NCBI GenBank assembly: GCA_963705305.1
Contig: OY970067.1
Coordinates: 2,112,001-2,176,000 of the forward strand
Origin: an uncultured Methylomirabilota bacterium
GTDB taxonomy: Bacteria > Methylomirabilota > Methylomirabilia > Methylomirabilales > 2-02-FULL-66-22
DNA length: 64,000 bases
Direction of reading: 5' to 3'
Part shown: piece after piece, positions 38,624 to 43,629 of the stretch
Layout of the letters: each line of letters opens with the position of its first letter
Numbering within the stretch: position 1 is the first letter of the stretch
The notes under the pieces: generated by a model
What the model saw: only the letters and a program-made list of their open reading frames with translations
Database searches by the model: none
What the model was told of the DNA's origin: nothing
Position numbers and translations under genes: made by a program

Positions 38624-39766
38624 GTGGTGAAGCCGGCTCGGCCCCATCGCTTTCACACGGCCTTGCGGGTAACGAACGCCGCGGGCTTCCTCTTCAACTC
38701 GTCGAGCGCGTTCTTCCTCCTGTTCCCCATCTACCTCCAGCAGCAGGGCAGCTCCCCCGCCCAGATCGGCCTCGTCGTCGGCCTCCTCCGGGCGGGCTCG
38801 CTAGTCGCCCGCCCGCTGGGGGGCCGGCTCCTAGACCGCCTCGGCCGGCGCCGGGTGATTGAGGTCGGCGCGCTCGTGGCCCTGCTGGCGATCCTGTCCC
38901 TCTTCGTGTTCCCGCAGGTCGGCGGGCCCTTCCTGCTCCTGCGCGTTTTCCAGGGGATCGGGACCTCGTGCATCGACTCCGGGCTGGGCGCGGTGGTGGC
39001 CGACCTGGGCCCGCCCGGCGCACGGGCGCAGGTGTACGCCATCTACACTGTCTCGATCAACCTGACCTCGGCCGTCATGCCCGGCCTGGGGGAAGCCCTC
39101 ATCCGCTGGGCGGGGTTCTTCCCCCTGTTCGGGGCCGCGGCCCTCGCCCTGGCCGCCTGCTTCCTCCTGGTCCTGCGGCTCCCGGAAACGGCGCGGCCGC
39201 GCGTAGAGCGACCGGCGGCCCGGCCGGGGCTCCCGCCCGGCTCGGGCCCGCTCCTGCTGGGGAGCCTGCTGGTCGGGTGGGTCTTCGGCACCCTGTCAAC
39301 CTTCGTCCCCGTGGCCCAGATCGCCGCCGCCCCGGGGCGGGTCGGCCTGTTCTTCTTCGCGTATTTCGCCGGGCTGTTGGCTGTGCGGCTGGCGGGGGGC
39401 CTCGGGGTGAGCCGCCTGGTGCAGCCGACGATGCTCCTGCCCGCGTACGGGGCCCTAGCCATCGGCTTGGCGGCGCTGCCCCTCGGGCATGGCGTGCTCC
39501 GGTTGGTCTTCGTCGGGCTCACCTGCGGCGCTGCGCATGGGGTGGTCATGCCAGTCCTCTATGGCATGCTCCTCGTCGGGCTGTCCCGCGATCGCCGGGG
39601 GTGGGCCGTGGCGCTCTACTCTGGGGCCTACGACCTGGGCGTGGTCCTGGCCTCTGCGGGCCTCGGAGTGATCGCGGAGGGGATCGGCTACCGCGGCATC
39701 TTCGTGGTGGCGGCGGTTGTCATGGCCCTCGGGGCGGGGGCGGCCCACCTGTGGGGGCAGCGGTAA
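38624..39766 (+). CDS. MFS transporter
   Basis: Motif A GGRLLDRLGRRR and many TM segments. Start is uncertain. Confidence 0.8.
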   Translation: MVKPARPHRFHTALRVTNAAGFLFNSSSAFFLLFPIYLQQQGSSPAQIGLVVGLLRAGSLVARPLGGRLLDRLGRRRVIEVGALVALLAILSLFVFPQVGGPFLLLRVFQGIGTSCIDSGLGAVVADLGPPGARAQVYAIYTVSINLTSAVMPGLGEALIRWAGFFPLFGAAALALAACFLLVLRLPETARPRVERPAARPGLPPGSGPLLLGSLLVGWVFGTLSTFVPVAQIAAAPGRVGLFFFAYFAGLLAVRLAGGLGVSRLVQPTMLLPAYGALAIGLAALPLGHGVLRLVFVGLTCGAAHGVVMPVLYGMLLVGLSRDRRGWAVALYSGAYDLGVVLASAGLGVIAEGIGYRGIFVVAAVVMALGAGAAHLWGQR

Positions 39767-40059
39767 GGGCCGTGCGGGATCGCAGGCGGAGCCGCCGCCG
39801 CGGCGGGCGGCCCCGTCAGAGCAGGTTTCGGGCCATGCCGCCCTCGGCTCGCTCTCCTTTCCCGTCGTAACCACGCTCCGACACCTGCCAGCGACCCGTC
39901 CCCCCGGGGACGGGGCGTGCCATCCATCCGCGGGAAACCCCGAGCCGCCGTAGTATGGAAATGGAATGCGGAGGGCAAGAACGGCGCGCGACTATTCTCA
40001 CGTCTGAAGGAGACGGCATCGATTCGAGTCCGAGCCGGCTCCCCGAGCGGGAAAAATCT

Positions 40060-42018
40060 CTAGCCGTTACACAAAGGTGTTGAATAGCGTCGGGGGTTGG
40101 AGTACAAACCCCTTGTGCTTACTGCGCCGAAGGGGAGCACTGCCCTCGAGAAGATTTCTTCCGTAGGCAAGACGCCGCGGATCCCGCCCCCTGCAGATGG
40201 GATCCAGGTGAACTTCTGTAAGAATCCCCGGTGCCCAAACTACGGGGTGCCGGCCCTTGCGTGGGTCTCGCGTACGCCCATCGCCTTCGGCGCGATCCAC
40301 GACCACTATGAACTGGACCGGGCCACCCCTCCGTCAGTGCCCCTCCTACACTGTCAGTTCTGCCGAGAAGAACCGCCAATCAAGAGCAATCGGGCCATCG
40401 CCGAGGAACAGCGACGACTGTTGGCATGCCTGCAGCTCCGCCCGGCCCCCGCCTGCCCTACCCTGGGGTGCGCGCACGGCAGCGTTCCCATCACCCGCGG
40501 CCCCGGCCATTACCAATCCTTCGGGAGGAGCCATTCGGGATCCCAGCGCTACCGCTGCAAGGCGTGCCATAAGACGTTCTCGGTGGGGATGGCCACGGTT
40601 CGGCAAAGAGCTCCCCATAAGAATCGGACGATCTTCAGCCTCTTGGTGAACAAGGCCCCGTTGCGCCGGATCTGCGAGGTGGCCAGCATCGCGCCGCCGG
40701 CCCTGTATGGCAAGGTGCGGTTTCTCGCGACCCAGTGCCAGGCGTTCATCGCCGAGCGGGAGCGTCGACTCCTCGATGGCTTGGCCTTCCGCCGGTTGTA
40801 TCTCGCGACCGATCGCCAGGAGTACATGGTGAACTGGTCCCAGCAAGCCGATCGCCGGAATGTCCTCCTCCATGCTGTCGGGACGGCCGACACCACCTCC
40901 GGCTACGTGTTTGGCGTGCACCTGAACTACGATCCGGCTCTGGAGCCTGCCGTGGTGGAGGCCGAGGCCCAGGCCTGTGGGGACTTGGGTGCGAAACGCC
41001 CCTTCCGCCGGTACGCCCGTTGCTGGCTCGCGGCGGATTACACGGAGGGCCTCCACCGGAAAGCTCGGCGAGGCCGCCGCGGGAAGGCGCCGCTGTCGGA
41101 GGAGATTCAGGCCACTTACGAGGAGGCGCTCGAGCGCGAGGATGTCGAGGCTTTTGAAGTCCAATCCCCGGATCGGCGGCTCCCGGCCAAGGGGATGCAG
41201 ATCCATGCCGAGTATACGCTCTACGGCCACTTCTTCTATCTGCGGGCGCTGTTCGGCGGGGTCGAGAAGCTCCGGTTCTTCCTCGATCAGGACTCGGGCA
41301 TGCGCGCCGCCTGCCTCGCCGCCTTCCAGCCGGAGATTGCCGCGCGCCGGGCGGACGCCTTCTACGTGCGGATCGCCTCCAAGCTGACGATCGCCGAGAA
41401 GCGCGCCGCCATCGCCGAGAGCCGAGCGGCCTTCCGGGCGGCGCGCCAGCGGCATCCCAGCCTCTCCGACACCGAGGTCAAGCTCCTTCTGATCAAAGCC
41501 CAGATGCGGGAAATGGCAACTCTGGGGAAATGGCAGGACAAGTGGCTGTCCCACCCCTTTCCCCACATGGGGGAGCCCCGCAAAGCCGTCTGCTGCCTCA
41601 CCGACTACGGGGACTACGACGAGGACCACCAGGCGTGGCTCTACAACAAGGCCTCCTTGCATGCTATCGACTGCTTCTTCATGCAGGTGCGTCGCCGGCT
41701 CTCGATGCTCGAACGACCCATTGCCTCGGCCAGCGCGCTCCAGCGAACCTGGTATGGGTACAGCCCGTACGATCCCGAGAGCATCGTGAGACTCTTGACA
41801 ATCTTCCGGGTCTACTACAACTACTGCTTGTCGGGCAGGGGAGGAACCACACCGGCCATGCGATTAGGGTTGGCTAAAGGAAGGGTGAGCCTCGAGGACA
41901 TTATCTACTTCTGACGCAATGTCGACGCAGCATCCCATCAGCCCTTTGGAAGCAGAGGGCGTTCCGTCTCCAGGCCAAAGGGGTCCGAACCGGATCAACA
42001 CCTTTGTGTAACGGCTAG
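40060..42018 (+). mobile_element. Insertion sequence, 1959 bp, 24-bp perfect TIRs, 9-bp target duplication
   Basis: CTAGCCGTTACACAAAGGTGTTGA (40060-40083) / TCAACACCTTTGTGTAACGGCTAG (41995-42018). GAAAAATCT at 40051-40059 and 42019-42027. Confidence 0.93.
40097..41914 (+). CDS. Putative transposase, Cys-rich, IS1/IS6-like features
   Basis: Only long ORF on this strand inside the TIRs. Zn-ribbon GSQRYRCKACHKTF, acidic motifs LATD / FLDQD / AIDCFF, C-terminal YYNY...TPAMRLG. Confidence 0.8.
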   Translation: MEYKPLVLTAPKGSTALEKISSVGKTPRIPPPADGIQVNFCKNPRCPNYGVPALAWVSRTPIAFGAIHDHYELDRATPPSVPLLHCQFCREEPPIKSNRAIAEEQRRLLACLQLRPAPACPTLGCAHGSVPITRGPGHYQSFGRSHSGSQRYRCKACHKTFSVGMATVRQRAPHKNRTIFSLLVNKAPLRRICEVASIAPPALYGKVRFLATQCQAFIAERERRLLDGLAFRRLYLATDRQEYMVNWSQQADRRNVLLHAVGTADTTSGYVFGVHLNYDPALEPAVVEAEAQACGDLGAKRPFRRYARCWLAADYTEGLHRKARRGRRGKAPLSEEIQATYEEALEREDVEAFEVQSPDRRLPAKGMQIHAEYTLYGHFFYLRALFGGVEKLRFFLDQDSGMRAACLAAFQPEIAARRADAFYVRIASKLTIAEKRAAIAESRAAFRAARQRHPSLSDTEVKLLLIKAQMREMATLGKWQDKWLSHPFPHMGEPRKAVCCLTDYGDYDEDHQAWLYNKASLHAIDCFFMQVRRRLSMLERPIASASALQRTWYGYSPYDPESIVRLLTIFRVYYNYCLSGRGGTTPAMRLGLAKGRVSLEDIIYF

Positions 42019-42118
42019 GAAAAATCTGGACACTGGAGGGAGGGAATTTAGGTGGCGTGAAGGATTAACGAATCGCGCCTCAGCGGCAGACCGGGGTGCG
42101 CGCCCCGCGCCGGGTGAA

Positions 42119-43039
42119 TCAGTGCCGCATGAGCACCGCCGCGGCGGGCCGGGACATCTTGCTGTTCTCGTGCGCCGCCCCCTGCACGACCTGGAGTTGC
42201 CACCCGAACGTGCACTTCAGCTCCGTGGCGCGGTGGCCGGCTTCCGTGAAAAAGTTCTGGCCGCGCTCGAAGCGGTAGGCGCCCTGGGCCATCGCCTGCG
42301 GCGTCTTACGGAGCTCTCTGTGGTTGGGGTCCGTGTCCCGGTCGCCGAGCATGAGAATAAATTCCCGACCGAGGCTCGTTTTCAGCGATTCCTCAGTGGC
42401 GGGAGAACCGCCGAGTCCGTAGGGAAAGTTGATGTCGAACCTCGGCATCGTGTACCACCCTGGATTGGCGGCCACCGCTCTGGCATACCGGGCGTCGGGC
42501 AGCAACAGCACGAGGCGATGCACGAACTGGCCGCCTTCGGAGTGGCCGTAGATGAAGTACTTTGCGCTCCGATTGCCGGTCGCCTCCCTGATGGAGTCGA
42601 AGAGATGCTCGATGACGCTGAACGACCACATCGACGCATCCTGAAGCTTGCCGTCCCTGCCGACGACGCTGGCGTAGGAATACCCGCCGCCGCCCCATCG
42701 TTCCGGGTCGAACAGCGGGGCGACCACCATGAATGCGTACTTGTCGGCATGCTCGATCCACGTGTCGCGATAGCCCTTGGCGTTCTTGCCATGGCCGTGC
42801 ATGACGAAGACGATCGGCGCCGCGTCCGGCTTGAGCCCCCTGGGCAGGTACGTGTAGACGGTGATCTCCTTCGACGGGTCGCCTTTCTCGTCTACGAAGG
42901 AGAAGCTGCCGGGTCCCGCGGCGATCCTGATCGTGGGGCCGGCAGCCGACACGGTCTGTGACCATATCAGCGTCCACACGAAAAGCACCAGCATCGGCCT
43001 GCACAGATGCGCGCGAGAAAGAAGATGTCTCACGGGCAT
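42119..43039 (-). CDS. Exported alpha/beta hydrolase (esterase/depolymerase-like)
   Basis: Signal peptide; FVMHG, nucleophile elbow GHSEGG, GDRD and a C-terminal His (GAAHE). Confidence 0.8.
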   Translation of the reverse strand: MPVRHLLSRAHLCRPMLVLFVWTLIWSQTVSAAGPTIRIAAGPGSFSFVDEKGDPSKEITVYTYLPRGLKPDAAPIVFVMHGHGKNAKGYRDTWIEHADKYAFMVVAPLFDPERWGGGGYSYASVVGRDGKLQDASMWSFSVIEHLFDSIREATGNRSAKYFIYGHSEGGQFVHRLVLLLPDARYARAVAANPGWYTMPRFDINFPYGLGGSPATEESLKTSLGREFILMLGDRDTDPNHRELRKTPQAMAQGAYRFERGQNFFTEAGHRATELKCTFGWQLQVVQGAAHENSKMSRPAAAVLMRH

Positions 43040-43629
43040 GAAGTCCTCACAGAATAACAGCCCATCTGCTGAACCCGTCTGGACTCTGGAAACACAAGGA
43101 CTTACAGAGGGGGACTGACGAAGTGGGGATGTTATATGCTTTTCGCATAACACCCCGTGGATTGCAGGAGAGCAATCGGGCGAACCATCAGTGGGAGTGT
43201 ATCGCCGGGCTCACGGGCTGTCAACCACAATCCCGCCCCGTCGCAGCAGCCTGGCCGCTTACCAAACATGTTGACAGGCCGGACCGCAGGAGGCACCGGT
43301 GTGGAGAATTACACTCCCATTACCACAGGTTACGGCGCGCCCGCGCGGCGGGATGGCTGCGGAAGAATTGTTCCGGGAATGGCCAATTCTCCTCTGGCAT
43401 GCAAATCGTGCGCTTCCCTACAAATCGCACGGTGGCATCAACATTTTGGTGAACGGCTAGCGCAGGAACAGGAGGGGCGGAAAATATTCCCTGTAGGGCG
43501 TTGTTGACGGAGTGGAATTATCTGCCCGCCGTCCGCCGGGCGACGGGTAGGACGCGAGGTGCGGTCACCTGGGGCATCGACTAGAGAGGTGGAAGACTCC
43601 ACCGCCCGCCCGGTCGAGGTGGACGCTTC

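Follow-up and report, generated by a model that had tools for sequence, protein, structure and literature searches.

In this study, we asked whether a long open reading frame (ORF) in an uncultured Methylomirabilota bacterium, which at first sight encodes just another hypothetical protein, is the transposase of a mobile element, and if so how that element moves and to which transposases it is related. The ORF lies in the window, by which we mean the whole 64,000-nucleotide stretch of DNA that was analysed (positions 2,112,001 to 2,176,000 of contig OY970067.1, assembly GCA_963705305.1), and it fills an insertion sequence (IS) of 1959 bp at window positions 40060-42018 on the forward strand. 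Our reading, to which we give a probability of about three in four, is that this element is an autonomous and recently active IS of a large and widespread family, that its transposase uses a D-D-D catalytic site, that it has amplified in trans a set of short non-coding elements with the same ends, and that it selects symmetric targets. The IS itself is real, intact and recently active, and its family is related to IS1 and IS1595, has a marked target specificity and probably a D-D-D(N) signature. The family is unannotated, or at least lies beyond the coverage of Pfam and NCBIfam.

An insertion sequence with short non-coding relatives

The element is bounded by 24-bp terminal inverted repeats (40060-40083 on the forward strand and 41995-42018 on the reverse strand), which are 100% complementary in the window sequence, and GAAAAATCT abuts both of them as a perfect 9-bp direct repeat (40051-40059 on the left and 42019-42027 on the right); this repeat reads as a 10-mer since the final G of the right inverted repeat matches too. 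Beyond the two element ends, no further site matching the 24-mer with up to three mismatches was found in the window, and at the same setting none of 100 dinucleotide-preserving shuffles gave a match (0/100). Between the inverted repeats there is a single ORF on the forward strand (40097-41914, stop included), which encodes 605 aa from a TTG codon and occupies 93% of the element; translation could equally well begin at an in-frame GTG at 40115, which would give 599 aa. The database representative P0002 is a 568-aa form with a later start. This start is probably too short, because R28, P30 and Q37, which lie upstream of it, are at least 90% conserved in a set of 48 homologues, one of the two sets in which we judged conservation, the other being 80 diverse representatives of 31-53% identity. 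Terminal inverted repeats and a target-site duplication hence enclose essentially nothing other than a transposase gene, which is what defines an insertion sequence. The perfect repeats, the duplication and the element-filling ORF had been pointed out in a sequence-only reading of the window and were confirmed; likewise, the protein motifs quoted there (CKNPRC, CQFC, CPTLGC, CKAC, LATD, FLDQD, LHAIDCFFMQVRRRL and YYNY...TPAMRLG) were all found in the translation.

The host assembly consists of one 5.65-Mb contig, in which the IS occurs only once at full length: a tblastn search for the 605-aa protein gave one locus, and a profile of the catalytic domain, searched against the whole genome, found its own gene only. 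The ends are found much more often. With up to four mismatches the 24-mer occurs at 47 genome sites, which pair into the IS, 18 copies of one 201-bp miniature inverted-repeat transposable element (MITE) and a number of relics; a 19th, divergent 201-bp element is located at genome position 531996, and further elements with related ends comprise one of 213 bp, one of 894 bp and one solo end. The 201-bp element does not code for protein; it matches the IS repeat in 24/24 nt at one end and in 22/24 at the other, and 17 of the 18 copies have a 9-bp duplication of their own, with distinct sequences. It is therefore a MITE in the usual sense, short, non-coding and multicopy, with the inverted repeats and the duplication length of the transposase. 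Thirteen of the copies are mutually identical, and the other five likewise share one sequence, which departs from that of the 13 at seven positions. The 13 identical copies argue for a very recent spread, and the 201-bp elements are a MITE family in a recent burst.

Relatives of the transposase are encoded in many other bacteria. A word-indexed search, in which 8000 candidates were scored, gave at least 954 homologous 90%-identity clusters at E≤1e-3; the 120 matches listed have 57-100% identity and are mostly unnamed, 'hypothetical' or 'transposase-like'. A profile search among 1.84 billion 50%-identity representatives returned 3034 proteins at E≤1e-3, 1633 at 1e-10 and 693 at 1e-30; longer forms exist as well, several of the profile matches listed having 826-964 aa. 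Among species-representative genomes, a relative is encoded in 136 of 221 candidate stretches, from which 79 loci were kept; these come from Pseudomonadota, Nitrospirota, Planctomycetota, Verrucomicrobiota, Chloroflexota, Desulfobacterota, Gemmatimonadota and others. Ends were searched for by a pattern, which located both family-type ends, with the consensus C[T/A/G]AGCCGTT..(5-9 nt)..GTGTTG(A) and 1.9-2.26 kb apart, at 24 of the 79 loci and did not settle the ends of the others. Both flanks were on the contig at 21 loci, and here a perfect 9-bp duplication was found at 12 and a duplication with one mismatch at two more. Derivatives at unrelated sites, each with its own duplication, are what movement leaves behind, and they are seen here in the MITEs and in the related elements elsewhere. 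The mobility of the family, originally proposed from one insertion, is thus borne out twice, by MITEs with the same ends in the host genome and by a common end consensus and 9-bp duplications around homologues in other phyla, where inspection had been suggested. At one pair of loci, an alphaproteobacterial metagenome-assembled genome (MAG; L034) and Thiocapsa roseopersicina DSM 217 (L035), the family member is one and the same, down to its ends and its one-mismatch duplication, which reflects either a shared insertion or a mis-binned contig.

We also compared 20 other genomes of the same genus. Most of these are incomplete MAGs, and absences among them are for this reason weak evidence. The full MITE is present in 0/20, 7/20 have end-only or partial matches, and 1/20 encodes the transposase, twice in tandem (78% and 72% identity); another has a fragment of it.

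The transposase and its catalytic residues

Reading from the N terminus, the protein has a first Cys4 zinc ribbon (C41, C46, C86 and C89; 40217-40363), with all four cysteines present in 80/80 representatives and short strands modelled at 71-73 and 83-86, followed by a second Cys4 zinc ribbon (C120, C125, C154 and C157) joined to an IS1-like helix-turn-helix (HTH) with helices 173-184, 189-196 and 200-226 (together 40454-40774), which was recognized by family-model matches. Overall, six of the eight zinc-ribbon cysteines are invariant and the other two are at least 90% conserved. The remainder (residues 231-605; 40787-41911) is a catalytic RNase H-like domain of the DDE (Asp-Asp-Glu) transposase type, as indicated by AlphaFold2 models, structure matches and conservation; all three parts are on the forward strand. 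AlphaFold2, used with the 48-sequence alignment, gave a full model with a predicted local distance difference test (pLDDT) score of 86.8 and a predicted template modelling (pTM) score of 0.88, and a model of the catalytic domain alone with 86.6 and 0.87. In this model the core strands 231-245, 255-265 and 271-276 are followed by a helical insertion at about 284-369, after which the core continues with helix 371-385, strand 389-397, helices 400-415 and strand 419-426; a second insertion (432-518) precedes helices 522-534, 560-577 and 586-590. The first insertion is accordingly placed between beta3 and alpha1 and the second between beta5 and alpha4.

Searches with the models agree on the fold. 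The only Foldseek matches at E≤1e-3 were ISCth4, of the IS256 family, and Tn5; structural re-alignment gave Z 12.3 for ISCth4 (root-mean-square deviation (rmsd) 3.9 Å, 240 residues), 11.2 for Tn5, 10.0 for Hermes and 8-9 for integrases, values that are middling by the calibration of the tool. A Foldseek-independent search with the domain model returned 50 listed rows, about 47 of which have an RNase H-like core (integrases, DDE transposases and Argonaute/PIWI proteins), with a best Z of 9.3. Because the list of matches is uniform and the core is covered, the assignment of an RNase H-like fold is safe, and no family is assigned from it. The structural check that had been proposed for this protein therefore came out in favour of an RNase H-like catalytic domain with long insertions, modelled with high confidence. 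By sequence, the full profile found only C2H2-type zinc fingers in the PDB and the catalytic-domain profile one spurious 20-residue match.

Family models cover the N-terminal part. Pfam gave nothing above threshold for the protein, with weak zinc-finger matches only, and no DDE family for the 48 homologues at E≤1. The NCBIfam model transpos_IS1 (NF033558) matches residues 142-216 with its positions 12-85 of 199 (E 2.5e-8; 34.1 bits, cut-off 100), and two zinc-binding models just reach their cut-offs, IS1_IS1595_Zn (NF050000) with 28.7 bits against 28 and the IS256-type 4-Cys N-terminal domain model NF048018 with 28.5 bits. Among the 80 representatives, the IS1 model matches 73, all N-terminally as far as the first member shows, and the IS1/IS1595 zinc domain 72; no other NCBIfam transposase model falls on the catalytic domain. 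The earlier suggestion of a distinct group holds to the extent that this is a transposase beyond any Pfam or NCBIfam transposase model except for the IS1-type zinc ribbon and HTH at its N terminus. A second link to IS1 is found at the other end of the protein. An hhalign comparison of the 80-member alignment with 30 IS1-family proteins gave a probability of 79.6% (E 1.5e-5) over the last 54 columns, and the C-termini alone reached 94.2% (E 1.1e-7), with Y-N-Y...T-P-A-M-R-L-G aligned to Y-N-F...S-P-A-M-A-A-G of IS1; against single sequences, hhalign gave nothing for E. coli InsB and a probability of 27.6% for a 285-aa IS1 transposase. The matching N-terminal module and C-terminal helices tie the family to IS1 and its relatives; the intervening core cannot be aligned with IS1, on account of its divergence and its interruptions.

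These links raise the question of whether we are dealing with an ordinary new member of a family or orphan group already curated in ISfinder, such as a long-transposase subgroup of IS1 or ISNCY; here, 'unclassified' is a judgement by Pfam, NCBIfam and the names of public records. We consider this rather unlikely. The N-terminal matches to IS1 and IS1595 models and the C-terminal profile match would be expected of such a member, as would 8-9-bp duplications, which IS1 makes, and an ESM Atlas lead, which at 0.88 is under the 0.9 trust line, points to a 328-aa archaeal cluster, 79% with PF03400. However, the IS1 model stays at about a third of its cut-off and is confined to residues 142-216, the Pfam DDE families and the remaining NCBIfam models are silent on the catalytic domain in the sets described above, and the ends are unlike those of IS1. 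With regard to whole-protein membership of IS1, PF03400 (cut-off 24.1 bits) is absent from the 48 members at E≤1, and genome-wide searches with PF12762 and PF03400 gave no match on this ORF. Moreover, the homologues listed from RefSeq plasmids are named 'hypothetical protein' or 'insertion element protein', which suggests that no curated relative exists. A narrow literature search, which cannot show absence, found no description of the family; a full-text search for ISMhu11 found no publication. We have not filed the element in IS1, IS1595 or IS256 because it falls below the curated thresholds and differs in size, in its ends and in its likely third catalytic residue.

The candidates for the first two catalytic residues are D239 and D397. 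D239, in strand 231-245, is D in 80/80 representatives; integrase cores align model residue 231 with chain residue 56, and if the first strand is ungapped this sets D239 on the first catalytic Asp, which is D64 in HIV-1 integrase. D397, at the end of strand 389-397, is D in 75, E in four and S in one of the 80, the nearby position 399 is D or E in all except one N, and an ungapped 32-column hhalign segment, weak at E 0.057, sets D397 on the second Asp of IS1. The candidate for the third, D525, is the fourth residue of helix 522-534. Judged by the succession of elements, this helix is alpha4, on which DDE enzymes have their Glu. Position 525 is D in 73, N in four and E, S and K in one representative each, and R532, seven residues further on, is R in 78/80. 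The local pattern H-A-I-D-x-F-F-x-x-V-R-R resembles the N-x-x-I-E-x-(F/W/N)-x-x-(L/I)-(K/R) signature of IS1, IS1595, IS256, ISL3 and IS6. The best-supported reading of the triad is thus D239, D397 and D525, together with R532; D525 most likely occupies the place of the Glu of most DDE transposases and, judging from the model, is probably the third catalytic residue.

Several observations count against this assignment. Position 525 is N in 4/80 representatives and in Firmicutes relatives, which keep an L-E-R-P motif, and one such N-525 relative lies within a unit that has its own inverted repeats and an 8-9-bp duplication; N at 525 in relatives that look mobile implies that a carboxylate at this position may not be required. 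Two other acidic positions, E493 (79 E, 1 D) and D279 (79 D, 1 E), surpass D525 in conservation, and the proposed triad gives no role to either. E539 of the L-E-R-P motif is E in 68/80, and it is this residue that leads to a different picture, in which the enzyme is a classical DDE transposase with Glu539 as its third residue and D525 caps a helix or contacts DNA. E539-R540 is reminiscent of the (I/V)-E-R of IS1, whose VER is paired with LER539 in short-segment hhalign: the best local alignment, between segments of 39 and 41 residues, places LSMLER on STSYVER, and with E539 set on the Glu of IS1, R540, R550 and W552 fall gap-free on R205, R215 and F217. This segment is, however, not significant (E 0.14, probability 0.4%). 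In addition, 11/80 representatives have G, S, Q, K or A in place of E539, 10 of them with D239 and D525 retained and D or E at 397, and E539 itself is located five residues past helix 522-534, off the topological alpha4, in a stretch whose pLDDT of 57-69 is the lowest in the model outside the N terminus. The five representatives with N or S at 525 all have E or D at 539, and an acidic residue is present at one or both of the two positions in 79/80; yet this either/or pattern is within chance, with one double loss observed and 0.8 expected. A catalytic Glu539 is in our view unlikely. With respect to the apparent DDD triad noted from the sequence, D525 remains the candidate best supported by conservation, helix topology and R532, with E539 a live rival and the IS1 segment alignment ambiguous between the two.

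Movement of the MITEs and choice of target

According to our reading, this single IS copy would have amplified in trans a 201-bp non-coding MITE that shares only the terminal repeats with it, and we infer that it was this copy that moved the MITEs. Not all of the data are favourable to this idea. A duplication is missing from one of the 18 MITE copies, and between their ends MITE and IS are unrelated in sequence; MITEs and transposase are paired because they share ends and because the genome has no other candidate gene. The empty site, which it had been suggested to look for, was not found in 30 relatives, where the left flank matched only to query position 522 of 760 and the right flank was unmatched, nor did any contig of four sequencing runs join across the element. 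It is nevertheless highly improbable that the IS copy merely looks intact and is inactive, and that the MITEs were spread by a different, now lost transposase with the same end recognition: the one IS copy set against 18 MITE copies, their unrelated interior, a decayed left-end fragment of a second IS 44 kb away and repeat-bearing relics in six congeneric genomes without a transposase found, most of them incomplete MAGs, would suit this explanation, but one MITE end is identical to the IS repeat throughout, the ORF is uninterrupted with all family-invariant residues present, the 13 identical MITEs speak for a very recent spread while the repeats and the duplication of the IS are still perfect, and the complete genome has no other gene of the family.

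The 20 elements that share these ends (the IS, the 18 MITE copies and the divergent 201-bp element) provide 40 flanks, from which a target logo was derived. C is found at positions -19, -18 and -17 from the element end in 35, 37 and 37 of the 40 flanks, corresponding to 1.3-1.6 bits of information, with every other position at or below 0.54. From this it follows that the target is CCC-N7-[9-bp duplication]-N7-GGG. The half-sites of the IS itself are CCC at 40041-40043 on the left and GGA at 42035-42037 on the right. Seven of the insertions, that of the IS included, are in copies of one sequence, a repeated non-coding motif of about 40 nt, ..GTTCGAG-N14-GGCTCCCC-N5-GGGCGAATCT, which has 11 copies in the genome (at 361893, 506938, 941973, 961341, 1617922, 1834645, 1861895, 2152022, 2181014, 3765465 and 5636197); seven of the 11 are occupied by the IS, a MITE or the 894-bp related element. 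The copy at 2152022 is that at window position 40022, and the left half of the IS target (40022-40059, forward strand) is one motif copy, with its CCC 17-19 nt from the element end. In a congeneric MAG (L013 1432-3342 and the abutting element, corresponding to G014:C101:17580-21281), two related IS are inserted head to tail in the same motif with one GGCGAATCT duplication between both, which implies two hits on the same target. On a metagenomic contig of run X2 the motif is present on a loose end before the left IS end, and on one of run X3 the right IS end is followed by sequence similar to what lies downstream in the repeated target region. In this lineage, elements of the IS family land preferentially in the motif.

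Its GTTCGAG resembles the T-arm of a transfer RNA (tRNA), and GGCTCCCC is conserved. A tRNA was considered and rejected, as ARAGORN finds none in the window and the nearest genomic tRNA is at least 7.6 kb from any element; a tRNA 3' end was rejected also, as no tRNA of the genome has a motif-like ending. Rfam gave nothing relevant for the motif at the gathering threshold in the window or at E≤1 in six motif loci, and no ORF consistently flanks its copies. Three motif copies have 120-220 nt more upstream in common. A hairpin drawn by eye around GGCTCCCC was dropped, since alifold did not recover it and its register varies, and the reconstructed empty sites in this genome are not more stable than random 49-mers (mean -5.8 versus -7.0 kcal/mol).

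In other phyla the symmetry of the target takes a different form. The duplication is on the loop of a predicted hairpin at nine of 13 distinct sites; compared with 300 local control 49-mers, z is below -1.64 at six of the 13 sites, with a mean z of -2.3. Loop-sited members with GC-rich hairpins are L026, L032, L036, L057, L058, L063, L081, L087 and L089, the insertion in L063 being within a palindrome of 22 predicted base pairs, and several of the target hairpins have A-tracts before and T-tracts after them, like intrinsic terminators. Survivorship of harmless intergenic insertions could contribute to this pattern; what argues for a targeting of hairpins is that the duplication is centred on the loop.

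Taken together, a mechanism may be sketched as follows. The zinc-ribbon/HTH module presumably reads the 24-bp ends, and D239 on beta1, D397 at the end of beta4 with D/E399 adjacent, and D525 in the first turn of alpha4 would hold the metal ions. The enzyme cuts the target with a 9-bp stagger and has a preference for symmetry, which in this genome means CCC-N7-[9 bp]-N7-GGG and for relatives elsewhere the loops of hairpin- or terminator-like palindromes; at the former sites, two subunits may read the two CCC half-sites 23 bp apart.

A few further features were noted at and around the element. Immediately interior to the left repeat, at 40084-40120, GGGGTT...AACCCC may fold into a small hairpin whose loop has GGAG, beside the TTG and GTG start candidates; as in other IS, this could serve to control translation. 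The fragment of the second IS mentioned above (77-81 bp of the left end, 91% identity, genome 2108146-2108226, which is not in the window but some 44 kb upstream of the IS) differs from the IS in this hairpin region. On its outer side the fragment is bordered by 60 nt that recur, as the reverse complement, immediately downstream of the target motif at 961341, which is uninterrupted; this context hints at a past IS-associated duplication or rearrangement. No sigma-70-like promoter site was found, two terminator-like sites are at chance level only, and the composition profile is unremarkable. The element is situated between convergent ORFs at 38624-39766 (forward) and 42119-43153 (reverse). A little to its right, the stretch 42066-42110, of about 45 nt, has seven matches of 80-93% identity on small contigs of one congeneric genome (G009) and is probably another short dispersed repeat. 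The only Rfam family in the window is a thiamine pyrophosphate (TPP) riboswitch at 1409-1515 on the forward strand (68.5 bits, gathering score 54.3).

Comparison with known elements

A distant branch of the family is found on plasmids of Firmicutes. Using tblastn against plasmids, 133 records with a collinear homologue were obtained (90 from Enterococcus, 10 from Staphylococcus, three from Listeria and others), with 22.7-22.8% identity over 94% of the query. On the Enterococcus faecium plasmid NZ_CP116515.1 (L092 831-4108), a small ORF, the distant homologue and the trimethoprim-resistance gene dfrG together form a 3.28-kb unit, which is bounded by inverted repeats of about 50 nt (86% complementary) and an 8-9-bp direct repeat. 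Proteins of this type keep the Cys pairs, D239, an acidic D-D-D at 397-399, R532 and LERP; they differ from the Methylomirabilota transposase in the Asn at 525, in the dfrG passenger gene and in much longer, AT-rich ends, and the small extra ORF directly upstream is present in Pontibacillus (L114) as well. The 'insertion element protein' Q4H3Y2, which is of this type, is apparently always linked to dfrG according to a passage in a paper on Staphylococcus aureus (PMC8638950), and kinship with the IS described here would provide a plausible mechanistic reason for the reported linkage.

It is tempting to go further and regard the element as the founding mobile example of an unrecognized major IS family, with at least 3000 50%-identity clusters in many phyla, a double zinc ribbon and an IS1-type HTH, an RNase H core with two insertions, a D-D-(D/N) signature, 9-bp duplications and a targeting of palindromes or terminator loops, and with the Firmicutes branch as a vehicle of dfrG. 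We put forward this wider view tentatively, at somewhat less than even odds. If it is true, the Firmicutes branch carries dfrG between plasmids, islands and prophages. Thousands of proteins now called 'hypothetical' or 'transposase-like' could be given the name of transposases, and the sequences on either side of them could be interpreted as IS ends. Insertions into terminators can alter read-through and the expression of neighbouring genes. One autonomous copy together with identical MITEs and a clear target logo would also make a natural test system, suited both to the study of DDE catalysis with Asp or Asn in place of Glu and to that of the choice of symmetric or hairpin targets.

Among known structures, the best match is ISCth4 of the IS256 family (PDB 6XGX and 6XG8), to which model residues 173-591, spanning the HTH, the RNase H core and part of the inserted region, were aligned with the Z of 12.3 given above, and a 4-Cys N-terminal domain model of IS256 also matches the protein. 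The two differ in that identity is 13% and in that the catalytic domain alone reaches Z 8.1, below integrases; the IS256 whole-protein model gave no match, and PDB transposases gave none at the sequence level. An insertion at the second of the two positions is known from Tn5 and Hermes, in which it assists hairpin formation.

With IS1 the family has in common the N-terminal zinc ribbon and HTH, which are InsA-like, and the C-terminal helices Y-N-(F/Y)...(T/S)-P-A-M..G, which align by profile. The host genome allows a direct comparison, as it also has two ordinary single-ORF IS1-family genes (L099 907-1764, at 3146 kb, and L100, at 3235 kb), with open frames of 289 and 285 aa; the L099 gene, of 285 aa, scores 69.5 bits with NF033558, has homologues named 'IS1 family transposase' and was used as the IS1 comparator. 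IS1-family elements are about 0.74-1.2 kb long, with a transposase of about 230-300 aa, and IS1 makes 8-9-bp duplications. IS1 is thus much smaller, about 0.77 kb (768 bp for E. coli IS1A) and 285 aa in this genome as against 1959 bp and 605 aa here, and it lacks the extra N-terminal zinc ribbon of this family. As a result of the two insertions, the spacing from the first to the second Asp is 158 and from there to the third residue 128 in the new transposase, compared with 72 and 64 in the 285-aa IS1, and the likely third position is Asp here and Glu in IS1; the ends of the two differ as well.

IS1595, finally, shares the zinc-binding N-terminal domain model NF050000 with this family, and differs from it in that PF12762 is without a match in the protein, the 48 homologues and the genome and that NF033547 is not among the matches; IS1595 elements are about 1 kb long and make 8-bp duplications, compared with 1.96 kb and 9 bp here. 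The third catalytic position of IS1595 is N, H or E with a basic residue at +7, and this parallels the D, N or E at position 525 and the R532 of the transposase described here.

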